Of a DNA stretch of 40,940 nt, positions 2,906 to 40,940 are shown in pieces (the stretch's first letter is position 1; every line of letters begins with the position of its first letter). The notes beneath the pieces were generated by a model. It was not told the origin of the DNA and did no database searches. It saw nothing but the letters and a program-made list of their open reading frames with translations. The stretch spans positions 1 to 40,940 of IMG/VR virus record IMGVR_UViG_3300033489_000025; one strand, given 5' to 3'. Position numbers and translations under genes: made by a program. The stretch is from a virus.

Positions 2906-4154
2906 TTACATACTGGATAATAAATACTGCGCCTTATTTTTGGATATGGGTATGGGTAAAACGTTAAGTGTCTTAATGGCGTTTAACGTTTTAAAGCAGA
3001 TGGGTGAACTCGAAAAGACCTTAATCATTGCGCCTTTGCGTGTGGCACAGATGACCTGGTCGAATGAGATAGATAAATGGGGGTTCGACATGACCTACAC
3101 TAAGATTATAGGTACACCAAAGCAGAGGCTAGCGGCCCTTAGCGCTGATACGGATATCTATATAACCAATATCGATAATGTTGTGTGGTTAAGTCAGTAT
3201 TGGGATTTTAAATTTGTGATAATTGATGAATCATCAATGTTTAAAAACCATCAAGCCATACGCTTTAAGGCTCTTAAGAAATTGACTTATAAGCGTATGG
3301 TCTTACTGTCAGGCACGCCAGCGCCAAATAACCTTACCGAGATATGGCCGCAAATGTACCTTTTGGATCACGGCCTCCGGTTGGGGTGTAATATCACGAA
3401 ATTTCGTGAGCGACATTGCTATTCGCTTTTAGGCGATGGACATATAACCTATAAATGGGGTATCAGGGATGAGCAAAAAATCTATAGGCTTATTGGTGAT
3501 ATCACTATGAGCATGGAGAATATCGTTAAGCCTAAAATAATTTATAATGATATCCCAGTTTATTTTAATACTTTAGAATCTAAAGCTTATGACGACTTCG
3601 AGAATGACTGTTATGCGAGTATCGATGAGGGCGATATCGATGTAGCTAATGCTGCTGTGCTAGTTGGTAAATTGTCGCAATGGACAGGCGGCCATGTATA
3701 TGACGCACAGGGTAATACGCGTGTGACTAATACGCGTAAGCTTGAGGCCTTAGAGGACACTATCCAGGCGGCTAATGGTGAAAACGTTTTAATCTTTGCT
3801 AATTACAAACATGAGATTGAAAGCATTCGCTTAATGGGTGCAGTCCATTTGACGAAAGAAATACATTTCCAGCAGTGGGATAGGGGGGAAATAAATATCG
3901 CTGTGGCCCATCCTAAAAGCTGTGGGCACGGGTTAAATATGCAAGGCGGTGGTCGCATAATCATTTGGTACAGTCTCACATACAGTTTAGAGTTGTACCT
4001 ACAGGCAAATGCACGTTTAGCTCGTCAGGGTCAGGCTAAAACAGTAATCATTAATCATCTGGTAGCTAAAGATACGATTGATGAGAGTATTGTAAAGGCG
4101 CTTAGTAAAAAGGAAATAAATTTAAAAGCTTTATTGAAAGGGGTTAGACGATGA
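2871..4154 (+). CDS. SNF2-family (superfamily 2) DNA helicase/translocase
   Basis: Motifs 'DMGMGKT' (I), 'IIDESS' (II), 'LLSGTPAPNN' (III), 'GHGLNMQ', 'QANARLARQGQ' (VI). Confidence 0.85.
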   Translation: MDLHEYQKQAVNYILDNKYCALFLDMGMGKTLSVLMAFNVLKQMGELEKTLIIAPLRVAQMTWSNEIDKWGFDMTYTKIIGTPKQRLAALSADTDIYITNIDNVVWLSQYWDFKFVIIDESSMFKNHQAIRFKALKKLTYKRMVLLSGTPAPNNLTEIWPQMYLLDHGLRLGCNITKFRERHCYSLLGDGHITYKWGIRDEQKIYRLIGDITMSMENIVKPKIIYNDIPVYFNTLESKAYDDFENDCYASIDEGDIDVANAAVLVGKLSQWTGGHVYDAQGNTRVTNTRKLEALEDTIQAANGENVLIFANYKHEIESIRLMGAVHLTKEIHFQQWDRGEINIAVAHPKSCGHGLNMQGGGRIIIWYSLTYSLELYLQANARLARQGQAKTVIINHLVAKDTIDESIVKALSKKEINLKALLKGVRR

Positions 4155-5193: not shown

Positions 5194-5499
5194 ATGGATA
5201 ATTGGACTAAACAAAGACTTAAAAGTGCTTATAAAGATATAGAATTTGAAAGTGTAACACAAAAGGAATTTGATAATATAAAAGATATGCAAATACTAAA
5301 TGAATGGGGCAATTCCTCATACGAAGAATGGTACACCGTTATAAAAGAAAGTACTAAAAATTATAAGATTACAGTTGAGGGGCATAATGAAGAAATTGGT
5401 CTTACTTTTGGGGATAAGTCAAGTTATTGTTTTAAAGAATATAAATGCTATATAAATAAGGAGGCGATTGCGAATGTGCGACAATTGCGGATATTGTAA
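5194..5499 (+). CDS. Hypothetical protein
   Basis: Track ORF; 'aggggga' RBS. Confidence 0.6.
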   Translation: MDNWTKQRLKSAYKDIEFESVTQKEFDNIKDMQILNEWGNSSYEEWYTVIKESTKNYKITVEGHNEEIGLTFGDKSSYCFKEYKCYINKEAIANVRQLRIL

Positions 5500-6005: not shown

Positions 6006-6455
6006 ATGATTTGGGAAACGTATGTGCGACCACGGGTATGCGAGATACTCGAGTGGAAGCGCGAGTATTTCACCAATAATGAAATAGCACAAAAGTTAGG
6101 TATCACAATTAGACAGTTCAATAAGGTTTTAGCTGAAAACAAAACGCTTAAAGACCTGATGGATGAGGGCGATAAATACATTGTCAAACAGGTGGAAGGC
6201 GCTATATTCAGGCGCGCTATGGGCTATACATATGACGAAGAAACTTTGGAGACTTACCGATCGGGGGGTAAGCCGGTAACGAAAAAAAAGATTGTGAAAA
6301 AGCATGTTGAAGGTTCTGTCGCAGCCCAGCAATTTTTGCTTACTAACCTAAAGCCTGAGAAATATCAAAAATTGGATAAGGTTGATATACATGTCGTAGA
6401 ACCGATAACGATAATCGACGACCTGGGAGGCCAAGATGGAAATAAAGTTAAGTGA
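6006..6455 (+). CDS. terS: Terminase small subunit (HTH-containing)
   Basis: Lies just upstream of the large terminase and overlaps it; 'NNEIAQKLGITIRQFNKVL' HTH. Confidence 0.7.
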   Translation: MIWETYVRPRVCEILEWKREYFTNNEIAQKLGITIRQFNKVLAENKTLKDLMDEGDKYIVKQVEGAIFRRAMGYTYDEETLETYRSGGKPVTKKKIVKKHVEGSVAAQQFLLTNLKPEKYQKLDKVDIHVVEPITIIDDLGGQDGNKVK

Positions 6456-8509: not shown

Positions 8510-9735
8510 AATTTTGGCGAAATTTCGCCAAAAAATCCTATTACACAGATGACTATAGGGCGGGTGCGCCTATATGGTCCATACAAGACGATACGGCATA
8601 TGTAGAAGAGGCTTTTGAGAAAATCGTCTGGTGTTATAGCTGTATAATCGCTATAGCCAGTGCCGTTGGTTCGATACCGTGGCGTTTGTACAAGCGCACA
8701 GGCGCAGACCTTAAAGAGGTTAAGAGCCATTATTTACTCGACATGTTTAATGGCCAGGTAAATCCGGACTTCACTTCGGCCGAGTTTTTCGAACTCTGGG
8801 CGGTATTCCTGGCGACACAGGGTAAATTCTTTGCGCTTAAAGACAATCCCGTACTGCCAAGTGAACTAAGGCCTATGTATGGGCATCAAGTTAAACCGAT
8901 ACCAGGGCCGGGGCCTCAGACGCTAAGCGGCTTTGAGTATGAGCTTAATAATACCAGGTACAGCCCAAATTTAGTATTGTGGGATAGGTTTATAGACCCT
9001 TTAGATTTTTACCAGGGACTTAGCCCTATACGCGCGGGCGCGCGTACGATGGCCACAGAGAACCAGGCTGTTGACTGGAACAAAAACGTATTTGACAATA
9101 TCGGCATACCGCCGGGCGCCTTAGCCCTATACAATGTATCCCCAACCCAAATCGATGAAGCTAAAAAGCGTTGGTTATCAGACTATAGCGGGCCAAAAAA
9201 GGCGCGAATGCCGTTTATTTTTGATTCTGAAAAGATTAACTATATCAATTTTGGTATGAGCCAGGTTGATATGGATTTCATCATGCAGAAAAAAGTTAAC
9301 CGTATTGAAATTTGTAGCACATTCGGTGTACCTGGCCAGGTGGTCGGTGACCCTGAGGGCCAGACTTACGCGAATTATGGCGAAGCGCTAAAGGCCTTTT
9401 GGTCTCAGACGGTAATACCTAGATACTTAAACCGTATAGGCGCGAAACTTAATAAAGACGTTGTGCGCCTATACGATAAAGCTTTTGTAATTAAGCCCGA
9501 CTTATCGGATATAGCTGTGTTACAAGAAGACGAGACATCTAAAACTGATAGAATCAGAGGCCTATTTATGGATAACGTAATGACTCAAAATGAGGCGCGT
9601 GAGGCTGTGGGCTTAACGGCTATACCGACGGGCGATGTGTTTAATTATCAATTGGCCGCGGCTTTAGCGGATACGGTACTTGACGAAGACGCGCCAGCCG
9701 ATGAAGAGGATGAGGATGAGGCCGATGACAATTGA
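8494..9735 (+). CDS. Portal protein (HK97-type family)
   Basis: Position and size; acidic C-terminal tail 'DEDAPADEEDEDEADDN'. Confidence 0.8.
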   Translation: MFDRLKFWRNFAKKSYYTDDYRAGAPIWSIQDDTAYVEEAFEKIVWCYSCIIAIASAVGSIPWRLYKRTGADLKEVKSHYLLDMFNGQVNPDFTSAEFFELWAVFLATQGKFFALKDNPVLPSELRPMYGHQVKPIPGPGPQTLSGFEYELNNTRYSPNLVLWDRFIDPLDFYQGLSPIRAGARTMATENQAVDWNKNVFDNIGIPPGALALYNVSPTQIDEAKKRWLSDYSGPKKARMPFIFDSEKINYINFGMSQVDMDFIMQKKVNRIEICSTFGVPGQVVGDPEGQTYANYGEALKAFWSQTVIPRYLNRIGAKLNKDVVRLYDKAFVIKPDLSDIAVLQEDETSKTDRIRGLFMDNVMTQNEAREAVGLTAIPTGDVFNYQLAAALADTVLDEDAPADEEDEDEADDN

Positions 9736-12813: not shown

Positions 12814-12842
12814 TTGTGCAAAGTATTTTTACATGATATAAT
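12814..12842 (+). promoter_or_regulatory. Promoter, conserved copy 3, driving the modification operon
   Basis: TTGTGC-17 nt-TATAAT; spacer 'aaagtatttttacatga' resembles those at 1990 and 5109. Confidence 0.55.
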
Positions 12843-12864
12843 AATACAAAAAGGGGGGTATACA

Positions 12865-13578
12865 ATGGAAACGTTAACACCAAAGACGTTAAGGCCTGAT
12901 AAGAAAACAATTATAATCGCGCTGCCAAATACAGGGCATTTTTATTTTGAGACTGTGGCGCGCTTATTATCTTTCCAAATACCTGAAGGGTATCAGCTCA
13001 TGTTTAACCTAATTTCTAATTGCTTGATTTACGATGCTCGTGAAAAGCTTGTGGAATTTGCGTTAGAACAGCCCAATGCAACGCACATTTTCTTTTTGGA
13101 CTCTGACATGGTGCCAGAGCCGCAAACGCTAACTCAATTAATAGGTTGGGATGTACCAATCGTCACAGCTAAAATCTATCAGCGCAAATTCCCATTCCAA
13201 CCATGCTTTTATACAAAAGTTAGAATAAATCGCGACTTTACAACAGAGTTAGAGGGACCAATGGAGCCTGAGAAATGGCCGTCTGAGGGTATATACGATA
13301 TAGAAGGTTGCGGTATGGCTTGTTGTCTGATTAACTTAAAAGTGTTTGAGGGACTTAAGAAACCATGGTTTTTCCCAATGCCCGGCGTGGGAGAAGACCT
13401 GGCTTTTTGCGTTAAAGCGAGAAGCGCAGGGCATAAGCTTTATGCGGATTTTGGTTTAGACTGTGCGCACATGGGTTATTTTCCAGTGGTTACGGCGTCT
13501 TTTCAAAACGCTTATACTGCGTGGATGAATAACCCCGAAAACAAAGGGAAATTAATATATGGCGGTGATGGGTTATGA
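12865..13578 (+). CDS. GT-A-fold glycosyltransferase
   Basis: 'IFFLDSDMVP' (DxD), 'GCGMACCLI', 'GVGEDLAFCVKARSAGHKLY'; no TM segment seen. Confidence 0.7.
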   Translation: METLTPKTLRPDKKTIIIALPNTGHFYFETVARLLSFQIPEGYQLMFNLISNCLIYDAREKLVEFALEQPNATHIFFLDSDMVPEPQTLTQLIGWDVPIVTAKIYQRKFPFQPCFYTKVRINRDFTTELEGPMEPEKWPSEGIYDIEGCGMACCLINLKVFEGLKKPWFFPMPGVGEDLAFCVKARSAGHKLYADFGLDCAHMGYFPVVTASFQNAYTAWMNNPENKGKLIYGGDGL

Positions 13579-14576
13579 GAATATGGGGCGGTGCGCTTGT
13601 GCGTAATGAGCAAGGGCGATATTTACAAAGATTTTGTGAGCAAATGCGGGCGATATGTGACCATGTTATCGTAATAGATGATGCCTCAACAGATAATACC
13701 GCAGATTTTTGTCGACAATATGATTTTAGTGTATTGTCTTCTAAGAAAAGATTATGGGATACCGACGAGGTAAGGCAAAGGAAAAGACTTTTTAATACCT
13801 TGACTTCACACGCGACACCGGGTGACTGGATATTGATACTTGACGCTGACGAGTTATTTCACGCGCCTCATAAGGTTGTACGTAGAGAATTAGAATATGC
13901 TAAAATACACACTTCTTTTATGGCTTATAGGTTATACGACATATGGCAAATACATAATGTGGGCTTTATTAATTCTAAAGTTAAGACGCCGCACTGCGAT
14001 GGCTTAGGCGTAGTAAACGCTGATGAATCAGGTAACGTGTATTTTTATAGAAATGACGAGTATTGGAATGCGCATGATAGTTATTGGCCTATGGCTTATA
14101 GGTATGAGGGTATTCAAGAATGGAAATGGAACGAACAAAGCCTTCATTGTGGAAGATTTCCCTATAATATTTATAAGAATATTAGCCCTTCGAATTATAA
14201 ATTACTGCATTTAGGCTGGGCGACCTTAGCGGATAGGCAACAGAAATACGCTAGATATATGAAGGCTGATCCTGACGGCAAATTTGGGATTATGGGCCAA
14301 TATCAATCAATATTGGACCCAAATCCGACTCTGGAGGTGGCGATTATGAATATTAAAGATATGACTGATAGTTTTATAATTTCGATGGTACACGACATCG
14401 AAGAATTATCAGAGCTACAAAAAGAACTGTGTAAATATTTAAGGGGTAACGAAAATAGGAATAAAATTATTGAAGAGGTAGCGGATGTTGAAATCGCTTT
14501 GAATGATATTAAAGCAAAATTCGACATCAAAGAAGTGAATATTAAAAGAGCGAAATTAAAGAAGGGGGTTTTATAA
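13575..14576 (+). CDS. Family-2 glycosyltransferase with a C-terminal MazG-like helical extension
   Basis: 'VIVIDDASTDNT', 'ILILDADE'; C-terminal 76 aa 'IEELSELQKEL...IIEEVADVEIALNDI' begins at an in-frame ATG (14346) with its own GGAGGTG RBS. Confidence 0.7.
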   Translation: MRIWGGALVRNEQGRYLQRFCEQMRAICDHVIVIDDASTDNTADFCRQYDFSVLSSKKRLWDTDEVRQRKRLFNTLTSHATPGDWILILDADELFHAPHKVVRRELEYAKIHTSFMAYRLYDIWQIHNVGFINSKVKTPHCDGLGVVNADESGNVYFYRNDEYWNAHDSYWPMAYRYEGIQEWKWNEQSLHCGRFPYNIYKNISPSNYKLLHLGWATLADRQQKYARYMKADPDGKFGIMGQYQSILDPNPTLEVAIMNIKDMTDSFIISMVHDIEELSELQKELCKYLRGNENRNKIIEEVADVEIALNDIKAKFDIKEVNIKRAKLKKGVL

Positions 14577-15125
14577 ATGGGCCCAGTAATGAATTATTCA
14601 GACCGTAGAGAGGTACTATTCTTCGCTGAACATTATAATTTTTTAGATGGTAAAATTTTAGATATCGGCTGTGGCACAGGCAATGCCGCAGATTTCTATA
14701 AAGACTATACCGGCATAACTTTAAACCGCCAGGAACTAGATACAGGTGTAACTCGTGGACGAAATATTAAATATATGGATGCTGAAAATTTAAGCCTTGA
14801 CACAGCGACTTTTGATGGCTTCATAATGTGGGATTCACTGGAGCACTTTTTGAGTCCGTATAGGGCTCTTTGTGAAGCTCGACGTGTGCTAAAGCCTGAT
14901 GGTAAGGGCCTAATATTTATGCCTGGTCAAAACTGGGTAAATTGCCATGAGCACTTACATGTTATGACTGTGCCTCAGATGGAACAGATTTTAAAAAGAA
15001 CTTTTTTTAAAGTTATAAATATTTATGAGAAAAAGTATCCTGGTAAACCAGATAAATATTGCGAGGGTATGGCGGTATACGAAATAATAAATGATATTGA
15101 ATATATACCGATGTTTGAAACGTGA
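14577..15125 (+). CDS. Class I SAM-dependent methyltransferase
   Basis: 'ILDIGCGTGN', 'FDGFIMWDSLEH', 'LKPDGKGLIF'. Confidence 0.8.
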   Translation: MGPVMNYSDRREVLFFAEHYNFLDGKILDIGCGTGNAADFYKDYTGITLNRQELDTGVTRGRNIKYMDAENLSLDTATFDGFIMWDSLEHFLSPYRALCEARRVLKPDGKGLIFMPGQNWVNCHEHLHVMTVPQMEQILKRTFFKVINIYEKKYPGKPDKYCEGMAVYEIINDIEYIPMFET

Positions 15126-15209
15126 TATAATAGGGTTATGGGCAAACCGGACGCGGTTATGGGGACAACGCCCAACCCCGCCCTATTTGATAGGGCTATT
15201 TTTTATTTT
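15122..15209 (+). promoter_or_regulatory. Intergenic extended -10 element plus GC-rich structured leader ending in a terminator-like hairpin
   Basis: 'gtgatataat' at 15122-15131; 'ccctat-ttg-ataggg' (15181-15195) then 'ctattttttatttt'; competing 'ataggg' at 15130-15135. Confidence 0.35.
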
Positions 15210-15223
15210 AAAGGAGCAAATTT

Positions 15224-17200
15224 ATGAAATTAATACTTTGTTATCCACCGCATATTGCGCCAGATGCGCAACACGGTCAAGGGCGTGAGTGGTACCCCAT
15301 AGGTATCGCGTCTTTAGCGGCTTATATAGATTCTAAATATAGAGATATCGATATAGCGTGTTTAGACCTATTCGATTTATCGTATGATGAATCTTTAAAT
15401 AAGATAACTAATGAAATGACCGAAAATGATATAAATTTAGTCGGTTTTACGCTTATGACTGAGCAAAGGGCTACAGTGTTTAATCTTTGTGCCGATTTGA
15501 AACAGCGCGTCGACGATTATAATTCAATCGCTAATACTACAACCCAATTAAGGACGATTGTTGGAGGTCCGCACGCGTCAATAATGTATCAGCAGATATG
15601 GGATAATTATAGCCAGATTGATTTTATCGTTGTGGGTGAGGGCGAAAAAGGTTTACTCCGGGTTATTTACAACCCGGATGTTCGAGGTATAGTCAAAGAA
15701 GATCAAATCGAAGATTTAGACACTTTGCCTTTAGCGATTGAGGGCTTAAAGTTTTTTAAACCCGGGCTTAAATTTAAAGAATACCCTATAGTATCGTCCC
15801 GCGGGTGCACAGACCGATGTACATTTTGTACAACGTATATAACCTGGAAGGGTTATCGCGTAAGAAGTGCGTATGATATATTTTTGGAAATAAATAAGGC
15901 TAAGGCTCTGGGCTATCAGTATTTTAAATTTCACGACGACAGCGCAACAGCTGATATGCAAAACTTTTTAGCCTTATGCCATATGTTAAAAGACTCGAAA
16001 ATTAATTTCGAGATAACGGCCAGGGCTGATCAACTAAATGAAGAATTAGTTAAGGCGTTAAAAATTGCCGGATGTGTCAAAGTCGCTTTAGGCCTGGAAT
16101 CAGGAAGCGAAAAGCTTAGAAAGTCAATGGGCAAAAAGTTAGACATAGCCCTGGCGTATCAAAACGTAAGATTACTACAGACTTATGGCGTACACGTCCA
16201 CGGTCTATTTATTGTAGGCTGGCCGGGTGAGACCGAAGAGACTATCGAAGAGACCCGCGATATGATTAAAGAGTTAAGATTAGACACTTTCTCAAATCTT
16301 CCGGGCTTAATGGCATTACCAGGAAATCCAATATATAATAAGTTTAAAAAAGATGGCTGGATAGATGATAGCTTTTGGTTAACACCTCATGCGCCTCCAT
16401 ATTACACAGGCGAGCATAATTTTGAGACACTAAATTATTTTAGTTCAAGACTTAGAGCGAGAGACGCGCGTGTGCTTATTGCGGCTGTGGTTAATCAGGA
16501 AGAACGCGTTTTCGCTGAATACTTAGAGCATTTAGATAATATGGCTGTGCCTAAAGACGTTGAGGTCTCTAGATGCTTTATATTACACAATAGCCCGGAT
16601 TTGAAAAAGTATCTTAAACCTGACGAGTATATCGAAGTAGATAATAATTTGGTCCATGATATGAGCCATACGTGGAATATTGAAAAGTTTACGTTTTTAG
16701 CCGATTGTAAGAATAAAATAGTCGAAATAGCCAATGGCGCACACGCGACTCACATTTTGTGGATTGATAGTGACTTATTGGTACAACCTGAAACGCTAAA
16801 ACATTTATTAAGCCTAAATGTTGATATTGTAGGCGAAATGTTTTTGACACAGTGGCCCGGCGCTGATAGGCCGATGCCTAACGCGTGGCACGTGGACCAA
16901 TATAGTTTTTACGCTGACCCAAAAATGTTTGATACTCGAGGCTTATATATGGTTGGAGGTACCGGGGCATTGATATTAGTGAATATACGTGTGTATGGCG
17001 ACTATATTAATTATAAAGCCGTCCCAAATGTGTCATTTAGCATCTGGGAAGATAGAGCCTTTTGTATAAGGGCTGCATGTGGGGGGTATAATATATATTT
17101 CGATACCAGGTACCCGGCCAGGCATTTATACACTAAAGAAATAACAGATAGCTATTTTAATGGTATAATAGAAGCGGGAGGTGTTAAAAATGGAGAATAA
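15224..17200 (+). CDS. B12-binding-domain radical SAM enzyme fused to a C-terminal GT-A-like domain
   Basis: N-terminal 'LVGFTLMT...IVGGPHAS'; 'SSRGCTDRCTFCT' (CxxxCxxC); 'GLESGSEKLRKSMGK'; C-terminal 'ILWIDSDLLV' and 'WEDRAFCIRAACGGYNIY'. Confidence 0.75.
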   Translation: MKLILCYPPHIAPDAQHGQGREWYPIGIASLAAYIDSKYRDIDIACLDLFDLSYDESLNKITNEMTENDINLVGFTLMTEQRATVFNLCADLKQRVDDYNSIANTTTQLRTIVGGPHASIMYQQIWDNYSQIDFIVVGEGEKGLLRVIYNPDVRGIVKEDQIEDLDTLPLAIEGLKFFKPGLKFKEYPIVSSRGCTDRCTFCTTYITWKGYRVRSAYDIFLEINKAKALGYQYFKFHDDSATADMQNFLALCHMLKDSKINFEITARADQLNEELVKALKIAGCVKVALGLESGSEKLRKSMGKKLDIALAYQNVRLLQTYGVHVHGLFIVGWPGETEETIEETRDMIKELRLDTFSNLPGLMALPGNPIYNKFKKDGWIDDSFWLTPHAPPYYTGEHNFETLNYFSSRLRARDARVLIAAVVNQEERVFAEYLEHLDNMAVPKDVEVSRCFILHNSPDLKKYLKPDEYIEVDNNLVHDMSHTWNIEKFTFLADCKNKIVEIANGAHATHILWIDSDLLVQPETLKHLLSLNVDIVGEMFLTQWPGADRPMPNAWHVDQYSFYADPKMFDTRGLYMVGGTGALILVNIRVYGDYINYKAVPNVSFSIWEDRAFCIRAACGGYNIYFDTRYPARHLYTKEITDSYFNGIIEAGGVKNGE

Positions 17201-17783
17201 ATTTTTGGCGTATAATGATGAAAAAATGGATACGGTTGAGGGCTTTAAAATACCGGCTTCATGGTGGTCAAGGCCTTTAGAATATGCGTTCGCCGCTAAA
17301 TATGTAAATAAAAAACATGTTGTAATTGACGCCGGATGCGGCATTGAGCATCCGTTTAAGTACTACTTAGCCAGTAATTCAAAGCACGTAACCTGTATAG
17401 ACACAGACGAGAGACTTGAGACTTTGCTCAGGCCTGATAACATGAATTTTATATTACGCGATATGTCAAATGATTGTGATACCGACGAAATAATAGCCGA
17501 TACAATCTTTTGCCTAAGTGTTTTAGAGCATATGAATCCTGCGCAACAGGCAAAGACTATAGAAAATTTCGTTAAATGGTTAAAGCCAAATGGCAAATTA
17601 ATTTTAACTGTTGACTATCCGACTATAAAACCAGAGGTTTTATGCGCTATGCTAGAGCCGCATTTTACGATAGGGAAATGCGATTATGATCCTGACAATA
17701 AGGCTAATATCGTTATGCCTTACTATAACTTAAAGGTATTTACTCTAGTTGGCACTAAAAAGAAGGTGGTCAAATGCGATTAA
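17190..17783 (+). CDS. Class I SAM-dependent methyltransferase (second)
   Basis: 'VIDAGCGIEHPF', 'IFCLSVLEHM', 'LKPNGKLILTVD'; ATG 17190 after a GGAGG RBS. Confidence 0.75.
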   Translation: MENKFLAYNDEKMDTVEGFKIPASWWSRPLEYAFAAKYVNKKHVVIDAGCGIEHPFKYYLASNSKHVTCIDTDERLETLLRPDNMNFILRDMSNDCDTDEIIADTIFCLSVLEHMNPAQQAKTIENFVKWLKPNGKLILTVDYPTIKPEVLCAMLEPHFTIGKCDYDPDNKANIVMPYYNLKVFTLVGTKKKVVKCD

Positions 17784-33931: not shown

Positions 33932-34295
33932 GCGGTTTGACAGGCTACTCGAAATAGCCAAAAAGTATAAACTATATATTAGTAACGATGAAGTCATCGT
34001 TGAAGGAAAAAAAGGACCGAAGATCCCCAGGGTAAACAGCAATGGCGTAAAACAATATTCTTTATACTACAAAGGATACACCAGATACTATGGGGTGCAT
34101 GAGCTCAGAGCATTTTTGGAAAATAAACCTCTGCTTAATGTACGTGTGCCTGTTAACAATAAAGTTATTAACAATAAAGTTATTAAGGGCATGGTATGCG
34201 GCATTTGCGGATTAACCTATCCGCGTAACGAAATGCGCGTTGGGGGCATTTGCTATTTATGTAAGAGTGTGTCGAAAAAAAGCGATTGCTATTAA
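33921..34295 (+). CDS. Hypothetical protein with C-terminal CxxC...CxxC
   Basis: ATG 33921 after GGAGGTG; 'CGICG...CYLCK'; 15-nt tandem duplication at 34155-34184 (NNKVINNKVI). Confidence 0.55.
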   Translation: MNAERFDRLLEIAKKYKLYISNDEVIVEGKKGPKIPRVNSNGVKQYSLYYKGYTRYYGVHELRAFLENKPLLNVRVPVNNKVINNKVIKGMVCGICGLTYPRNEMRVGGICYLCKSVSKKSDCY

Positions 34296-34308
34296 AGGGG
34301 TGAGTGAT

Positions 34309-35163
34309 GTGTTAAAATGGTTTGATAGATGGTGGTTTTTCCATAATGGCTACCACAATTATGATTTTTTCGGTGATCATTTTGGGCCTAGTGGTTATAC
34401 GGTAGACGTGTGTGACCATTGCGGGGAAATGAAGGAAATACCACAAAATTTATATAAGGAGGGAATAGTCCATGTTGGGCTATGTAAAGGTATGAATAAT
34501 TATTGGGAAATAGAACACAAAGAAAATTGGCATAAAGGTATTGACGGTAGTATTCAAACCGCAATGATTTGTGGGGCTGTGCTTAGTAACCTGAGCATTA
34601 GACAATTTGAAAAACTTATGGCGTCGGATTCGCTCATCGACATTGGATGTGGCACAGGCGAAGCCGCAGGTATATTTGATGGGCTCTTAGACCACGACGT
34701 ATTTGCTGTTGACTATTGCGAAAAAGCCACTAGACAAGCGCCTAGTAGGGTAACCGCATTATGCGAAGATTTTAGAAATCTTAAAGCCAGGTACGATATA
34801 GGCTATTGTTCTCAGCTATTGGCATTTTATAAAGATAATTTGCTATCTGAGCTGATAAAATTGGTTAATGAAATGCTTATAGTTGTTGTACCATACGATC
34901 AGAACATGGATGGTCGTGTGACTGAGCCCGCAGAGGGTAATGAGCCTGGAGGTCACAAAAGGGCTTTTAGCAGAAAGGATTTCCCAAAATTCCTGGGCGA
35001 TTTTGAACGCACCACCTTTAAGCCTATGCCAGTTACTAATCCGAGAGTGTTGGGTCAACAGTTATTAGTTGTCTATGAAATAATCGACGACAGGACTAAA
35101 AAAGATATCGAATTTGACCAGAAACAATTGGAAGATTATTATGAGTATTTAGGAAATAGGTAG
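34309..35163 (+). CDS. Class I SAM-dependent methyltransferase (substrate unknown)
   Basis: 'LIDIGCGTGEAAG'; GTG 34309 lies 8 nt after 'aaagggg' (GTG 34300 is an alternative start). Confidence 0.65.
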   Translation: MLKWFDRWWFFHNGYHNYDFFGDHFGPSGYTVDVCDHCGEMKEIPQNLYKEGIVHVGLCKGMNNYWEIEHKENWHKGIDGSIQTAMICGAVLSNLSIRQFEKLMASDSLIDIGCGTGEAAGIFDGLLDHDVFAVDYCEKATRQAPSRVTALCEDFRNLKARYDIGYCSQLLAFYKDNLLSELIKLVNEMLIVVVPYDQNMDGRVTEPAEGNEPGGHKRAFSRKDFPKFLGDFERTTFKPMPVTNPRVLGQQLLVVYEIIDDRTKKDIEFDQKQLEDYYEYLGNR

Positions 35164-35174
35164 TATATAAGTAC

Positions 35175-35227
35175 AGAGACCCTATAAATTCGAGTCGGGA
35201 AATTTGGATTTATAGGGTCTCTTTTTA
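35175..35227 (+). terminator. Strong intrinsic terminator
   Basis: agagaccctataaat ... atttatagggtctct (15-bp arms) followed by 'ttttt'. Confidence 0.8.
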
Positions 35228-35288
35228 TATGTTATTAGAAATGATAGGCGTAAAAGTATATGCGGAAGGATTGATTTTTATATTAAGT

Positions 35289-35308
35289 TGTGATACACTA
35301 ACTTATGT
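35289..35308. repeat. 20-bp element, left copy, flanking the CRISPR array
   Basis: tgtgatacactaacttatgt versus tgtgatacactaacatatgt at 35672-35691 (19/20). Confidence 0.8.
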
Positions 35309-35323
35309 CAATTTATAAAGCTA

Positions 35324-35659
35324 CTTGAACCTTAACAAGAGTTGTATTGAAACTCTATTGCTATAAATATCCCGCCCGAAAGTAGCGGCCTTGAACCTTA
35401 ACAAGAGTTGTATTGAAACTATGCTACATAAAGACAATCGCATAAGTTTAATCCGCTTGAACCTTAACAAGAGTTGTATTGAAACACCTATGACGGGCCA
35501 GACCATAAGGAATATATAAAGCTTGAACCTTAACAAGAGTTGTATTGAAACAAAAGCGTAATAAGGATTTAGATAAAGTCTTGAACCTTAACTTGTATTG
35601 AAACAGCGGCTAATTTGGATTAATACAAGTTATACTTGAACCTTAACTTGTATTGACAC
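35324..35659 (+). CRISPR. Cas-less mini-CRISPR array: 4 intact 30-bp repeats, 2 degenerate 25-bp repeats, 5 spacers
   Basis: Repeat CTTGAACCTTAACAAGAGTTGTATTGAAAC at 35324, 35390, 35456 and 35522. Variants with a 5-bp deletion at 35580 and 35635. Spacers of 36, 36, 36, 28 and 30 bp. Degeneration at the right end implies the leader is on the left. Confidence 0.9.
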
Positions 35660-35671
35660 GGATTATTAAAA

Positions 35672-35691
35672 TGTGATACACTAACATATGT
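35672..35691. repeat. 20-bp element, right copy, flanking the CRISPR array; contains a 14-bp palindrome
   Basis: tgtgatacactaacatatgt; 'ctaacatatgttag' is a perfect palindrome; lies ~30 nt upstream of the RHH gene. Confidence 0.8.
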
Positions 35692-35720
35692 TAGTATTTT
35701 TTATATGGGAGGTTAATCGT

Positions 35721-35882
35721 ATGATAAAGGTGGAGTCGAATGTTAAATATCCTAAGCCTAAAAATAAAGCAACAATTATATATTTGAGTCCTGAAAACCG
35801 CTTAAAGGCTGAAGCCTTAAGCAAACGCGAAAAAGTTAGTATCACACGAGTAATAAACGTACTATTAGAAAGGGCGAGGTAG
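35721..35882 (+). CDS. Ribbon-helix-helix (CopG/Arc-like) DNA-binding protein
   Basis: ATG 35721 after GGGAGG; 'ATIIYLSPENRLKAEALSKREKVSITRVINVLLERA' fits a beta-alpha-alpha pattern. Confidence 0.6.
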   Translation: MIKVESNVKYPKPKNKATIIYLSPENRLKAEALSKREKVSITRVINVLLERAR

Positions 35883-35885
35883 CGT

Positions 35886-37940
35886 ATGAAAAACATCCCA
35901 AAGGGTTTACGAGATGCCAGAGGCTGGATTCCCTGGAAGAGGGTTTCGCGAGATGGGAAAGACCTAAAATTACCCATCAGGCTCGACGGCACAAGCGATG
36001 GATGGAATACCACAAATTATACTTACGATGAGGTCAAAGATTTTGCGCTGATCGGGTTACAACCTAAGGGGCGACTTATATGTATAGACTTAGATAATTG
36101 TTTTGATGATGAGGGCAGGCCAAATGCGGCGGCCCTCGATGCTTTGTCCTTAAAAAGTTATACCGAATATTCGCCAAGCGGTAAGGGATTACACGTCTGG
36201 CTATATACCACGATAGATTATAATTCCATGTCGCGAAAGGGCATAGAATTATTCGCTAATTCTAAATATTGTACCGTAACGGGTCGGCAGTATGGTGGGA
36301 TTGATGAAATCAAGGAAGAAGATATTTCCTGGCTGATAAATAAATACTTTAATGTTAGTAGCGCCCATACGGCTGATCCATTACTTAAAAAAGGGCCTAT
36401 CGGCTCTTTCTGTAGGGCTATTAGCATAGATGAGGCTCTCGAAATGACAGGCCTGTATACGCATATAGAAGGTAATCGCTGGCACTATAACCCTTCGCAC
36501 AGCGCGCCAGGCGTTCTAACATACGAAGATAAATACGTCCTGAGTAACCATGCTACAGACCTGATATGTGATGGCCATCAGCACAACGCTTTTGACCTTG
36601 TGCGAATACATAAGGGTATTGGCGTTAACGAAATGTGCACTTTCGCATACAGTATACCCAAAGTGCAAGAACAGATAAAGAAAGACGCTTTTGGAGATAT
36701 GCCAAAAGGATTAACACATACGAAAAGTGGGGCCCTGGCTAAAACATATGAGAATTTAGAACTTTGTTTCAATATGGATTTTGCCTTTAGGTATAACGAA
36801 TTTACTAAAGAATACGAAATAACAAAAGCGCCCTGGGTGCAAGGCCCGAGGTTATTAGAAGATGCCGATTTCTCGCTGATCGACGTCTGGGTAGGCAAAA
36901 AATACATTTTGTATGGGGCTTCGCACATGATTAAAAATATCATCGTCCAAATGTCACACAATAATGCGTATCATCCCATAAAACAATATTTTGAGGGCCT
37001 GACGCCATGGGATGGCGTTAAAAGGGCCGAAACCCTTCTTATTGACTGTTTTGGCGCTCAAGATAACGCATATACAAGAGCTGTGACATTTAAAGCCTTA
37101 TGCGCGGCCGTCCAAAGGATATATCACCCAGGACGTAAATTCGACTATTGTTTAACACTAATAGGGGAAACGGGCTTACGTAAATCTAGTATTTTTAGAG
37201 CTTTAGCAGGGGATGATTATTTTTCTGATGATTTTAATTTAAGCGACACGAGGGATAAAACAGCTAGCGAAAAAACCTTACGCAATTGGCTTATCGAGAT
37301 CGGTGAACTGGCCGGGATGCGTAAGGCCGACACGGATTGTGTTAAAAGCTTTATGACTCGTCAACAGGATAAATTCAGAGCCGCCTTTGGCCGTGTGGTA
37401 GAAACATATCCCAGACATTGTATATTTGTTGCGACAAGTAATGAACGTAATGGAGTGCTAAAAGACACTACAGGCGGTCGTCGTTGGTGGTTGGTAAATT
37501 GTTTTAAGCGATGGGATGGGATAATCGATCGCGACCAAATATGGGCTGAAATTATGGCAACGGGCCTTAGTGAGCAATTATATCTAGATGACGAACTAGA
37601 GGCCCAGGCTAATCGAATTCAAGCCGAAAACCTGGAGACTGAAGAATCTATAGGTATGATAGAGGATTATTTAAAATGTAAAATACCACAAGACTATTAT
37701 CAAATACCTTTTAGAAGCAGAGACTATTTGAATCTGGGGGAGCCCAAAGACGATTGGCTTAACAGATCATATGTAATAGTAAAGGAGATATGGGTGGACC
37801 TTTTTAAGAAAAACCCCTATGACCTTACGCGACATGAGTCGAATAAGATAGTCGCGGCGCTATTAAAATTAGGCCTTAAACGCAGTGGAAAAAAACGATT
37901 CGGTGTATACGGAGAATGTTTATACTTTACCCTCACTTGA
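35886..37940 (+). CDS. Bifunctional primase-polymerase / VirE-like P-loop replication protein
   Basis: 'ICIDLDNCFDDEG', 'SPSGKGLHVW' (prim-pol); central/C-terminal 'LIGETGLRKSSIF', 'WLIEIGEL' (VirE/D5-like NTPase). Confidence 0.8.
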   Translation: MKNIPKGLRDARGWIPWKRVSRDGKDLKLPIRLDGTSDGWNTTNYTYDEVKDFALIGLQPKGRLICIDLDNCFDDEGRPNAAALDALSLKSYTEYSPSGKGLHVWLYTTIDYNSMSRKGIELFANSKYCTVTGRQYGGIDEIKEEDISWLINKYFNVSSAHTADPLLKKGPIGSFCRAISIDEALEMTGLYTHIEGNRWHYNPSHSAPGVLTYEDKYVLSNHATDLICDGHQHNAFDLVRIHKGIGVNEMCTFAYSIPKVQEQIKKDAFGDMPKGLTHTKSGALAKTYENLELCFNMDFAFRYNEFTKEYEITKAPWVQGPRLLEDADFSLIDVWVGKKYILYGASHMIKNIIVQMSHNNAYHPIKQYFEGLTPWDGVKRAETLLIDCFGAQDNAYTRAVTFKALCAAVQRIYHPGRKFDYCLTLIGETGLRKSSIFRALAGDDYFSDDFNLSDTRDKTASEKTLRNWLIEIGELAGMRKADTDCVKSFMTRQQDKFRAAFGRVVETYPRHCIFVATSNERNGVLKDTTGGRRWWLVNCFKRWDGIIDRDQIWAEIMATGLSEQLYLDDELEAQANRIQAENLETEESIGMIEDYLKCKIPQDYYQIPFRSRDYLNLGEPKDDWLNRSYVIVKEIWVDLFKKNPYDLTRHESNKIVAALLKLGLKRSGKKRFGVYGECLYFTLT

Positions 37941-37952
37941 GGGTCTTTTTTT
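37929..37952 (+). terminator. Intrinsic terminator overlapping the primase stop codon
   Basis: accctc-actt-gagggt followed by 'cttttttt'. Confidence 0.65.
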
Positions 37953-38037
37953 ATGACAAAAAAGGCTTATGTGATAGTATAAATGCCTAAGTGTTTGTCG
38001 CACTGACACCAATTGTTAAAACATCCCAGGGGGGCGG

Positions 38038-38288
38038 TTAATCGCAGAACCCATGTTCTTAATCGCATAACTATTCTCTCCTATAATGCCCTTATATACT
38101 TATTATAATAATAGAGAATAATATATATATATATATACATATAATAAGAGGAGAAAAAAATGCGCGCGTACATATAGGAAATGTGTTATTCTCAGTCTCA
38201 AATCGTACTTTCGCCATATTACTGCGTTTCAAGGTGGTTTAACCTGCGATTAATATTTTTATGCGATTAACTTTAAGGGATAATCGCA
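38038..38288. promoter_or_regulatory. Iteron cluster flanking an AT-rich (TA)n core: candidate replication origin or operator array
   Basis: TTAATCGCA at 38038 and 38059 (+); TGCGATTAA at 38245 and 38262 (inverted); TAATCGCA at 38281 (+); 'atatatatatatatatacatataat' around 38119-38145. Confidence 0.5.
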
Positions 38289-38301
38289 TAAAAATAAAAA
38301 C

Positions 38302-38331
38302 TTGACATCGTACTTGATTGGGGTGTAAAAT
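38302..38331 (+). promoter_or_regulatory. Promoter
   Basis: TTGACA-18 nt-TAAAAT with upstream TG. Confidence 0.6.
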
Positions 38332-38337
38332 AAGAAA

Positions 38338-38450
38338 GTATTCGTTTTGGTTTGATTGATGGCCAGACTAAAGCGAATAAAACACATTCGCATGTGCGTC
38401 TGTGATAATCCGAGCCATCAAAATTGGATTATCCCGGGCGTTTTTTATTT
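38338..38450 (+). ncRNA. Structured ~110-nt leader or small RNA ending in an intrinsic terminator
   Basis: Stem 38397-38411 / 38426-38440 (15 bp, one mismatch, two G-U pairs) followed by TTTTTTATTT. 'ttgatggc' (38356) can pair with 'gccatcaa' (38414) in the terminator loop. Confidence 0.35.
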
Positions 38451-39165: not shown

Positions 39166-39375
39166 ATGAATTTAGAACAACTATTAAAGAGCATGACAAA
39201 TGTAACTCCAAATGAAGAGCAAATTATAAGGATAGAAAAAGTTAGAGAATCTTACAAAGAGGTTGCAAGGACTCTTTATGAAAACTGTAAATCCAATAGA
39301 AATTTATCAATAGCAATTACTGAGTTGGAAAATTCTTTGATGAGAGCAGTAAAAAGTATTTGTTTAGAAGATTAA
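39166..39375 (+). CDS. Hypothetical small helical protein
   Basis: ATG 39166 after 'gggtggg'; AT-rich. Confidence 0.55.
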   Translation: MNLEQLLKSMTNVTPNEEQIIRIEKVRESYKEVARTLYENCKSNRNLSIAITELENSLMRAVKSICLED

Positions 39376-39409: not shown

Positions 39410-40855
39410 ATGAAAAAAACAGTGAGTTTATATTTGAGTTTTGTAATTATATTTTTAAATTGTTTAGGTGTTTTTGCTGAAACAAGCAAGCCCAAATGTG
39501 GGTTAATATATGAAAAGACTAATTTTAAAAAGTTGGAAGCAACAAAAAAATTATTGAGCACATCTGAAATCCCAGCTAGTTTTGATTTAACTGATAAAAT
39601 GCCAGCAATAGGATTGCAACAAGGTTCAGATTGCACGGCTTGGGCGGCCGGTTATGCTTTAAATAGTCATCTACAGAATGATGATTGGAATTGGGGATTA
39701 ACAACATCTAATCATCAATTTTCTCCAAATTACTTGTATAATCAGGCTTGTGGTTACGCAGGCGGAGGAACTTCATTTTATGATATTTGCAATTTGTTAG
39801 TTAATCAAGGCTGTTGTACGCTTAATAAATGGGCATATACAGCAAATTATACAGTTCATCCAACTGCTTCTCAAATAGCCAATGCGGGTAATTTTAAAAG
39901 TAGTGGATGGTTGCAAACTGAGGGATATGGAAATGATGAAACAATCAATTCCATTAAAGAATATATGGCAACATATTCAGACCCAGTCTTGATGGGAATT
40001 CCTGTTTCTGATGATTTTGATAATTTAAATAGCACAAATCAGATATATGATGTCTATAATCCAGCTACATGCAGGGGCGGGCACGCCATTACATTGATAG
40101 GATATGACGACACAAGACAAGCTTTTAAATTGCAGAACTCCTGGGGTACTGACTGGGGAATTGATGGTTATGGTTGGTTGGCATATGATCTGATTAAGAA
40201 CGCACAGTTTAATGATTGGATTAATTTCAATGGATTTCCGACTTATGGATATGTTGTAAATGATATTAGAACCGCAGATCAAAACAATGTATATTTTGAT
40301 AATATTAAATTTCTTAAAAATGTTGTTGGCACACAGCTTTCATTTACTTTAAAAATAGATGGTGTTGTAGCGCCAGAAGGTGGAAATATAAAAACAATAG
40401 GAAGAAATTATAGAATTGATATCAAAGAAGATGACTCAACAACTGATGATTTTGCAGCAAAATTGGGAACTTTAGTTGATGGAGTAAATGCAATTAAGCT
40501 AAAATTATACGAAAGTCCTTATAATGGCAAGTATTCTGAATTTCAATTCAATATAAATGTTAATCAAAAACCTGTTGAAAGAAATGTTAAGTTAACTGAT
40601 ATCAAAATCATAAAAAATACGGGAATAGGTACTAACTGGAAGCATTCTTGTAAACTTGGAAATTCAACATTAGCAAAAGGACAAACAATAAAAACGAGCG
40701 CAAGAACACTTTATTTAAAGAGTGTTGAAGATGACTCAGTGTATGATGATGTTGCAATAAGAGCCACATCAATAGGTGCTTATAGAGATTTGACAGTTTG
40801 GGAAAATAAATACAATGGCAAGTATGCAATTGTAAGATATTATTTTACATATTAG
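39410..40855 (+). CDS. Secreted papain-like (C1 family) cysteine protease with duplicated C-terminal domain
   Basis: Signal peptide 'MKKTVSLYLSFVIIFLNCLGVFAE'; 'QQGSDCTAWAAGY' (Cys), 'GGHAITLIGYDD' (His), 'LQNSWGTDWGIDGYGWL' (Asn-Ser-Trp). Two C-terminal repeats each end in 'YNGKY'. Confidence 0.8.
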   Translation: MKKTVSLYLSFVIIFLNCLGVFAETSKPKCGLIYEKTNFKKLEATKKLLSTSEIPASFDLTDKMPAIGLQQGSDCTAWAAGYALNSHLQNDDWNWGLTTSNHQFSPNYLYNQACGYAGGGTSFYDICNLLVNQGCCTLNKWAYTANYTVHPTASQIANAGNFKSSGWLQTEGYGNDETINSIKEYMATYSDPVLMGIPVSDDFDNLNSTNQIYDVYNPATCRGGHAITLIGYDDTRQAFKLQNSWGTDWGIDGYGWLAYDLIKNAQFNDWINFNGFPTYGYVVNDIRTADQNNVYFDNIKFLKNVVGTQLSFTLKIDGVVAPEGGNIKTIGRNYRIDIKEDDSTTDDFAAKLGTLVDGVNAIKLKLYESPYNGKYSEFQFNINVNQKPVERNVKLTDIKIIKNTGIGTNWKHSCKLGNSTLAKGQTIKTSARTLYLKSVEDDSVYDDVAIRATSIGAYRDLTVWENKYNGKYAIVRYYFTY

Positions 40856-40940
40856 GCCACTCCCCATGCGGTTTGGAATAAGACTTATTTGGAGTCAATA
40901 GAAATAAGTTTATCTTATAAAGCTACAATAAAAATTACAG
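40814..40940. repeat. Terminal exact duplicate (copy 2) of nt 1-127
   Basis: Identical to nt 1-127 by direct reading. Confidence 0.9.

Follow-up and report, generated by a model that had tools for sequence, protein, structure and literature searches.

The locus and its phage

The window analysed here, the whole 40,940-nt stretch of IMG/VR virus record IMGVR_UViG_3300033489_000025, carries four exact copies of the 30-nt repeat CTTGAACCTTAACAAGAGTTGTATTGAAAC, beginning at positions 35324, 35390, 35456 and 35522. Allowing up to three mismatches, no copies beyond these four were found in the window, and the number of matches expected by chance is zero (100 shuffles). The repeats alternate with three unique spacers of 36 nt each, S1 (35354–35389), S2 (35420–35455) and S3 (35486–35521), giving a canonical array R1-S1-R2-S2-R3-S3-R4 that occupies 35324..35551 on the plus strand with a repeat–spacer period of 66 nt. 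Directly downstream on the same strand lie the pseudo-units psiS4-psiR5-psiS5-psiR6 (35552..35659), whose parts measure 28, 25, 30 and 25 nt: psiS4 spans 35552–35579 and psiS5 35605–35634; R5 (35580–35604) and R6 (35635–35659) both lack the bases AAGAG, and R6 carries an A to C substitution in addition. This recount agrees with the original prediction, which had described four exact 30-bp repeats with three 36-bp spacers, followed by two shorter repeats sharing a 5-bp deletion, the last with an extra substitution, beside spacers of 28 and 30 bp. The 3′ end of the repeat, ATTGAAAC, had likewise been read correctly.

A CRISPR array is recognised by at least three near-identical direct repeats of 23–50 nt with regular, unique spacers of similar length, and this is the arrangement found here. 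The Rfam model CRISPR-DR3 (RF01316) matches R1–R4 at 38 bits (E 0.003), just under its gathering score of 41 and on the strand opposite to the rightward orientation of the array; R5 and R6 are unmatched by it. That the feature is a cas-less CRISPR array of a type I-B repeat family, carried by a phage, is secure.

The window has a terminal redundancy of 127 nt and hence a unique length of 40,813 bp. It is a rotation of the ENA contig ERZ27256988:k141_5351957, the ends of which overlap by 141 nt; the overlap is of the sort that MEGAHIT produces for circular assemblies, and the genome is complete. Virion genes include those for terminase, portal, protease, HK97-type capsid, connector, tail and tape-measure proteins. 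These are accompanied by genes for an Amidase_3 endolysin, a Gp2.5-like single-strand DNA-binding protein, a family A DNA polymerase (PolA), a primase/VapE helicase and an SNF2 helicase, and an Acb2/Tad1-like anti-defence gene is found 3.5 kb downstream of the array. No cas gene was detected among the open reading frames examined (PHROGs/Pfam) or in the precomputed Pfam records of called genes, which cover two thirds of the genome, in keeping with the earlier claim that the genome has none; the array is an orphan on a virus replicon. No integrase was seen among the examined reading frames or the precomputed Pfam records either, and so the phage is probably not a prophage.

The phages in GenBank are distant relatives, with 45% identity in the polymerase and 33–39% in the primase; all are phages of Firmicutes, and a megablast search of 34000–37000 against GenBank phages returned no match. 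Closer relatives come from primase comparisons: the primase of L123 is 79% identical and those of L124 and L125 are 72% identical over their N-terminal part. In L123 and L124 a single promoter segment precedes a 53-aa ORF and the primase gene, with no array, and none of the relatives found through the primase has one. Searches with the methyltransferase and capsid proteins yielded three short contigs and one 38-kb phage, again without an array, which has thus been seen in one known genome. L123 shares the methyltransferase 3′ end and terminator of the window, but the interval from terminator to promoter differs in content from relative to relative, comprising three other genes including antA in L123, Bro-N in L124 and pRha in L126. 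The array therefore occupies a variable cargo slot, and the presence of one promoter copy and no array in the relatives marks it as a recent acquisition of this lineage. Together with the flanking regulatory duplication described below, the array-less relatives offer a before-and-after view of the insertion.

Repeat family and orientation

A scan with a degenerate form of the repeat, covering one genome per GTDB species, identified at least 120 loci, nearly all of them, among the matches listed, in Clostridium or other Clostridia. The family has the consensus GTTGAACCTTAAC-N6-TGTATT-N-AAA-N and corresponds to Rfam CRISPR-DR3 (RF01316). Its commonest variant among the matches listed is GTTGAACCTTAACATGAGATGTATTTAAAT of Clostridium (326 copies at 26 loci), the very repeat that the original prediction had named as a close likeness; it differs from the phage repeat at five positions (25/30 identical). 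No paper matched GTTGAACCTTAACATGAGATGTATTTAAAT in a full-text literature search. The closest variant among the matches listed, GTTGAACCTTAACAAGAGTTGTATTGAAAT, comes from three Vallitalea genomes, where it forms arrays with a period of 65–67 nt. It is identical to the phage repeat at 28 of 30 positions, only the first and last bases differing. Base 30, one of these two, supplies position −1 of the 5′ handle in the crRNA. The combination of C1 and C30 seen in the phage is absent from the scanned genomes among the matches listed, and the exact phage repeat (29 nt) was not found in IMG/VR, the GTDB representative genomes or the JGI metagenomes.

In V. maricola, a 12.6-kb contig has the order array-cas6-573-aa ORF-cas7-cas5b-cas3-cas4-cas1b-cas2-array, with all cas genes and the repeats as written on one strand. 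The cas5b and cas1b products match TIGR02592 (1.8e-45) and TIGR03641 (6.7e-117) respectively, and Cas3 is an 862-aa helicase with the Cas3 C-terminal domain; Cas6, Cas7/Csh2, Cas4 and Cas2 also adjoin the GTTGAACCTTAACAAGAGTTGTATTGAAAT arrays. No model matched the 573-aa ORF, which stands at the position of Cas8b. The family of the phage repeat thus adjoins a type I-B cas operon, a link whose absence the original prediction had named as counting against it, here with a repeat that is 28/30 identical. At L009, L094 and L057, the 8-kb blocks around the arrays contained only housekeeping genes and no cas genes. Type I-B repeats are associated with a Cas8b/Cas7/Cas5b/Cas3 effector and with Cas6 and Cas1b, and handles of 8 nt and of the ATTGAAA(C/T) type are typical of these systems. 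The practical value of the finding is modest; the repeat links this phage group to hosts with the Vallitalea/Clostridium type I-B repeat family.

In Vallitalea arrays a conserved leader carrying a promoter lies on the 5′ side, and the last repeat, on the 3′ side, is degenerate. The strand of the Vallitalea cas genes, together with these leader and trailer sides, shows that the phage array is oriented rightward, and the direction of transcription proposed earlier gains support from the same comparison. The conserved repeat-proximal part of the Vallitalea leader is absent from the phage and, lacking a leader of host type, the phage array probably cannot gain new spacers.

Flanking signals

Upstream of the array, at 35175..35222 on the plus strand, is a strong intrinsic terminator consisting of a 20-bp stem and a T-run after it. 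A homologous terminator follows the methyltransferase gene in L123. The one in the window is predicted to close the methyltransferase unit and to insulate the array. Between this terminator and R1 lies a putative promoter, P1 (35271..35299, plus strand), comprising a −35 box TTGATT (35271–35276), a 17-nt spacer and the TG-extended −10 element TGaTACACT (35291–35299), which lies 25 nt before R1. P1 scores 8/12 plus the TG, just below the scan cut-off of 9/12, and its predicted start is at about 35306, some 17 nt ahead of R1.

P1 has the same extended −10 element as a second predicted promoter, P2 (35653..35682, plus strand), which scores 10/12 plus the TG and has a −35 box TTGACA (35653–35658), an 18-nt spacer and a TG-extended −10 box TACACT (35677–35682), with a predicted start at about 35689. 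P2 is the predicted promoter of the conserved 53-aa ORF (orf53, 35721–35882, plus strand), which lies directly downstream of the array setting, and of the primase/VapE-type helicase gene that follows it (35886–37940, plus strand). The array is co-oriented with all of the neighbouring genes. The −35 box of P2 sits inside psiR6 and is created by the A to C substitution of R6 (the C at 35657). This coincidence qualifies the original prediction, which had counted the substitution among the signs of decay. The corresponding sequence of L123, ATGACA-18-TGaTATACT, aligns base for base with TTGACA-18-TGaTACACT of P2, suggesting that the last repeat occupies, or has fused with, an ancestral −35 box. 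The overlap provides a small, testable case in which a CRISPR repeat has been put to new use within a promoter.

The two extended −10 elements belong to a longer duplication. A direct repeat of 28 nt, or of about 35 nt if 80% identity is allowed, brackets the array, with its upstream copy, TATTAAGTTGTGATACACTAACTTATGT, at 35281..35308 and its downstream copy, TATTAAAATGTGATACACTAACATATGT, at 35664..35691, both on the plus strand. The core, TGTGATACACTAAC, occurs at only two sites in the window, both flanking the array, and each copy contains TGaTACACT. On the downstream side, a perfect 16-bp palindrome, ACTAACATATGTTAGT, is followed by ATTTTTTA (35680..35703, plus strand), the T-run lying downstream of the P2 −10 box; the relatives have a different palindrome at this site, ATATACTGA-TTAAG-TCAGTATAT, followed by T7. 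The palindrome of the window would be either a weak terminator for P1 transcripts or an operator overlapping P2. Transcripts from P2 would begin inside it and so would escape termination there. In the upstream copy the palindrome and T-run have degenerated, for which reason transcription from P1 should enter the array.

The truncated units

The middle of the repeat reads ACAT-NNN-ATGT in 22 of 26 variants and ACAA-NNN-TTGT in the other four, and in none of the 26 is a pair broken (variants among the matches listed). This compensatory change supports a hairpin with a 4-bp stem and a 3-nt loop, and the Rfam DR3 model carries an identical structure. The phage and Vallitalea repeats belong to the ACAA/TTGT class, and all four 30-nt repeats of the phage retain the 4-bp hairpin. 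The AAGAG deletion in R5 and R6, by contrast, takes out half of the stem together with the loop; the 25-nt repeat that results has a predicted fold of 0 kcal/mol. Lacking the hairpin, R5 and R6 should bind Cas6 poorly. No deletion of this kind was found in the trailers of the sampled host arrays.

The two truncated units resemble one another. The alignment score of S4 with S5 was reached by only 27 of 5000 shuffles, and a 55-nt period across the units was detected by Tandem Repeats Finder, suggesting that S4-R5 and S5-R6 derive from one damaged unit that was later duplicated. We read the damage to R5 and R6 as one common deletion in a tandem duplicate and not as two separate decays. The earlier reading of this end as a decayed trailer thus holds insofar as the 3′ units are damaged, but not in treating them as having decayed separately. 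As part of the duplicated unit, S5 would not be an independently acquired spacer.

At the RNA level, psiS5 can pair with the 3′ part of psiR6 and its 6-nt flank to form a long imperfect hairpin (35611..35665, plus strand), in which 35611–35632 pairs with 35644–35665 at 20 of 22 positions, three of them G-U; the opposite strand allows only 18 of 22 pairs. The segment 35552–35700 has a predicted fold of −33.4 kcal/mol (z −3.7), and only one of 200 shuffles was equally stable.

Search for spacer targets

Elsewhere in the window none of the five spacers has a counterpart, exact matches reaching 11 nt at most, as had been concluded earlier by eye. A sensitive blastn search of the whole array against GenBank phages and PLSDB plasmids revealed no protospacer; it returned only weak matches between repeats (arrays on Sulfurospirillum and C. 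perfringens plasmids) and matches at chance level. Exact 26–28-nt cores of S1–S3 were absent from IMG/VR, and S1 was absent from the JGI metagenomes when every sixth base was left free. Against about 0.9 Mb of host and relative loci, with the relatives represented by genome fragments, no spacer had a match longer than 17 nt. The best of these, a 17-nt match of S5 to a small ORF of Clostridium faecium (L064), was judged to be due to chance. A 19-nt likeness of S5 to the loop of the upstream terminator was also dismissed, about three such pairs being expected by chance on a rough estimate. In the reverse direction, none of the spacers of the sampled host arrays matches the phage. The original prediction had named a failure of every spacer to match a mobile element as something that would tell against it, and this was the outcome in the databases searched. 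S2 holds the core of the phage’s own origin-iteron motif.

Function of the array

In our assessment, the chances are about even that the array is a working crRNA unit served by the type I-B Cas proteins of the host, probably against competing elements. This reading is favoured by the undecayed repeats with their hairpin and handle, the canonical spacers, the promoter copy, the insulation afforded by the upstream terminator and the lack of self-targeting; that the targets would be competing mobile elements is suggested by analogy with the mini-arrays of other viruses (PMC11656645). With no spacer target found, use against such elements is something we infer. Weighing against the reading are the lack of a protospacer, of an exact host repeat and of a host leader, and the occurrence of the array in a single genome.

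How might such a unit work? The array would have entered the lineage recently, inserting after the methyltransferase terminator and ahead of the orf53/primase operon, with a local duplication of the promoter segment. P1 would transcribe it rightward, giving either an RNA of about 400 nt or a leader that runs on into the replication operon. If the host has a type I-B system that fits, its Cas6 would cleave each of the four intact repeats at a point 8 nt short of its 3′ end, and three crRNAs (S1–S3) with the 5′ handle ATTGAAAC would load into host Cascade. Cascade and Cas3 would then be aimed, most probably, at competing phages or mobile elements of the same host. The truncated units would not be Cas6 substrates but would form a structured 3′ end to the transcript, and the last of them would have been turned into the −35 box of the replication-operon promoter. 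We infer the transcription, processing and loading steps, and the nature of the targets, from what the locus contains. Type I-B systems dominate in Clostridia, and if the array works, it would represent another phage that borrows the CRISPR machinery of its host, in this case an uncultured and apparently integrase-less siphovirus of Clostridia.

The same transcript might instead protect the phage from host type I-B immunity, either as a decoy whose repeats soak up Cas6 and Cascade subunits or as a regulator whose short pseudo-spacers, S4 and S5, bring Cascade to the promoters of host cas or toxin genes and thereby repress them. Phage repeat mimics are known to inhibit CRISPR-Cas (PMC10651486), and in the viral arrays termed Cracr the repeats are degenerate, the spacers are shortened and the last units are processed poorly (bioRxiv 10.1101/2024.10.29.618823), features that recall the damaged repeats and 28- and 30-nt spacers of the last two units here. 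Clostridium phage CWou-2020a and the IMG/VR locus L130 each have a solitary repeat of the same family, flanked by a promoter and a terminator, no mobile-element target could be identified for any spacer, and the Acb2/Tad1-like anti-defence gene downstream also counts in favour of this reading. We nevertheless think an anti-CRISPR RNA unlikely. The first three units are full-length and canonical rather than solitary, and R5 and R6, being without a hairpin, would make poor Cas6 decoys; S4 and S5 look like duplicates of one another and not like two designed guides. In the cas locus of V. maricola, which served as the closest available stand-in for the host, neither of them matches over 12 nt or more, and no degenerate repeat of the CreA/CreR kind was seen. 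An improbable hybrid, to which we give rather little credence, would make the locus a dual RNA and DNA module built into the replication control of the phage, in which three guides, an RNA stem of 20 bp and a repeat co-opted as a −35 box together act as a weapon and as a sink for Cas6 and Cascade; under it, the iteron core in S2 hints at the origins of related phages as targets.

It is also doubtful, in our view, that the array is a neutral passenger, a piece of some host array picked up through illegitimate recombination in the course of an infection, not yet decayed and having no effect other than to supply part of the downstream promoter. Its presence in a single genome and its absence from the closest relatives, where the slot holds AntA, Bro-N or pRha cargo, are what this would lead one to expect, as are the missing host-type leader, the damaged 3′ units and the want of a spacer target. 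The four repeats, however, are still 100% identical, and 380 bp of useless DNA is rarely retained by a phage genome. Moreover, the array has a dedicated promoter copy and lies in the functional orientation, with the terminator hairpin lost upstream and kept downstream; because this arrangement admits transcription to the array, it looks selected and not accidental. We regard as very improbable the suggestion that the repeats serve as a recombination handle, giving homology to host arrays through which phage or transduced DNA could recombine into the CRISPR locus. Such a role would suit a phage in which no integrase was found, and integration into arrays is among the roles proposed for viral repeat units, according to a work cited in PMC10651486. 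A homology of 30 bp is very short for RecA-dependent recombination, though, the unique 36-nt spacers and dedicated promoter would be purposeless, and no phage sequence was seen beside the arrays in the sampled host loci. Finally, the position of the array in the replication module, just upstream of the primase gene, raises the question of whether the repeats are iterons or binding sites for a phage regulator rather than CRISPR; in L138, a distant relative, iteron-like GTAACAA motifs and an AT tract precede the orf53 and primase genes. We consider this scarcely credible and have rejected it, given that the repeat agrees at 28 of 30 positions with repeats found beside cas genes, that it matches Rfam CRISPR-DR3, and that a 66-nt period with unique 36-nt spacers is the geometry of a CRISPR array. 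The window also has a separate and better candidate origin at 38036–38296.

Comparison with known systems

The phage array resembles the type I-B arrays of Vallitalea and Clostridium in its 4-bp hairpin and 3-nt loop, its ATTGAAA(C/T) 3′ end, the length of its spacers (35–37 nt in this group) and its orientation. It differs from them in having no adjacent cas genes, no leader of host type and only three canonical spacers, and also in the manner of its decay: the terminal units of the phage have an internal 5-nt deletion, whereas in the host arrays it is the 3′ end of the final repeat that degenerates.

Type I-B arrays are also carried on Clostridioides difficile prophages. Mini-arrays that serve in conflicts between viruses have been described in the Saccharolobus portogloboviruses SPV1 and SPV2 and in many prophages; they work through the Cas proteins of the host, and their spacers are for the most part directed at related viruses (PMC11656645). 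Like these, the array described here is short and cas-less, has repeats of a host family, does not target its own genome and is presumed to rely on host Cas proteins. The viral mini-arrays described, however, comprise one spacer or two, with repeats that match the host's exactly, whereas the phage has three spacers and two pseudo-units, and the nearest host repeat among the matches listed is 28/30 identical; and whilst their spacers mostly match related viruses, those of the phage match no available relative.

As in the Racr and Cracr systems, the repeats lie just downstream of a promoter, and the last units are degenerate and short-spacered in the manner of psiR and psiS. Racr units are defined as solitary, with no other repeat within about 100 bp, whereas the phage has six tandem units. 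A Cracr array is recognised by a pseudo-spacer with nine or more PAM-proximal matches to a host cas or toxin promoter or to a host CreA/CreR element; in the V. maricola locus, again as the nearest available host proxy, the phage spacers showed no match of this kind and no complementarity to a cas promoter or a CreT-like target. Cas-less phage arrays, solitary repeats and multi-unit viral crRNA-like arrays are, then, already documented (PMC11656645, PMC10651486). What is mildly novel here is that the promoter segment is duplicated on both sides of the array, that the last repeat also serves as a −35 box and that duplicated pseudo-units, lacking the repeat hairpin, pair into an RNA stem.

A similar array is carried by L129 (IMGVR_UViG_3300011896_000021), likewise a phage contig, with four repeats of the same family and three spacers of 35–36 nt. 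Its repeats are mutually divergent and of the ACAT/ATGT class, and its spacers and genome are unrelated to those of the window. Its array, too, is bracketed by a direct duplication, in this case of a terminator hairpin of about 38 nt.

Candidate origin downstream of the primase gene

Just 3′ of the primase/VapE-type helicase gene lies a gene-free gap (37941–38423) in which the motif TTAATCGCA(T/G)AA occurs five times, three times directly and twice inverted, at 38036–38296 around an (AT)n tract. On the basis of this arrangement, we regard 38036–38296 as a candidate replication origin. The core of the motif is also present in S2, the second spacer of the array, at spacer nucleotides 17–26 (AATCGCATAA). 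The probability that a random 36-mer and the origin motif set have a 10-mer in common is ~7e-4, a figure to be read with the fact that the S2 match was noticed post hoc. A related phage's origin could have been the source of S2.

The promoter of orf53 (the conserved 53-amino acid ORF) and the primase gene is followed by a palindrome and T-run in the window phage (35680–35703) and in its closest relatives, which lack the array, L123 (~1832–1860) and L124 (~1042–1070), alike. The palindrome varies in sequence among the phages whilst retaining its symmetry (ACTAACATATGTTAGT versus ATATACTGA-TTAAG-TCAGTATAT), and the element looks like either an operator or a conserved overlap of terminator and promoter.

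Related repeats and duplicated elements in other phages

A solitary repeat, GTTGAACCTTAACACGTGGTGTATTTAAAT, is found in the IMG/VR contig L130 (~4126–4153) and in Clostridium phage CWou-2020a (L134 1508–1537; CP063964.1, ~8855–8900), a plasmid-like phage of C. botulinum that carries a ParM gene and in whose record the repeat is not annotated. Flanked by a promoter-like site and by a hairpin with a T-run, the repeat looks like a Racr-type unit (a phage-borne RNA anti-CRISPR) of the same repeat family as the window array.

Four repeats of this family, all differing from one another, with three spacers of 35–36 nt, are present at 5429–5655 of L129 (IMGVR_UViG_3300011896_000021), a phage contig unrelated to the window phage. 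Two near-identical copies of a ~38-nt terminator hairpin (AAAAAGGATTATTAG..CCTAATAATCCTTTT) stand one either side of the L129 array, which, like that of the window, sits between duplicated regulatory elements. A duplicated element is seen again, at the equivalent position upstream of orf53 and the primase gene, in L138 (ENA ERZ23498365 scaffold_751), a 37.9-kb relative of the window phage. Here, a 2.2-kb stretch without called genes, 5′ of orf53 and a DUF927 primase, includes a 43-nt palindromic element occurring twice, 259 nt apart (6134–6435). The stretch, which also has (AT)n runs and in which the motif GTAACAA recurs many times, is probably an origin.

Other features of the window

A 69-amino acid gene (~39166–39375, equivalent to L121 4109–4318), located 3.5 kb 3′ of the array, has a precomputed Pfam match to Acb2_Tad1_hairpin, a family of anti-CBASS/anti-Thoeris nucleotide sponges, and is likely to be an anti-defence gene. 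A cysteine protease domain of the papain family (Peptidase_C1, 1.4e-9) is carried by a 481-amino acid protein that is encoded in the early region (39410–40855) and is found in L124 too.

Glycosyltransferase-like and methyltransferase-like genes, plus one for a 658-amino acid protein of unknown function, are clustered at 12814–17783 within the structural module, with capsid genes on one side and head-tail connector genes on the other, an unusual location for such genes; the cluster is arranged likewise in L138.

Positions 1–127 are identical to 40814–40940. This 127-nt identity is an overlap left by the assembly of a genome that is circular or has terminal redundancy, and features near the window ends are therefore counted twice.
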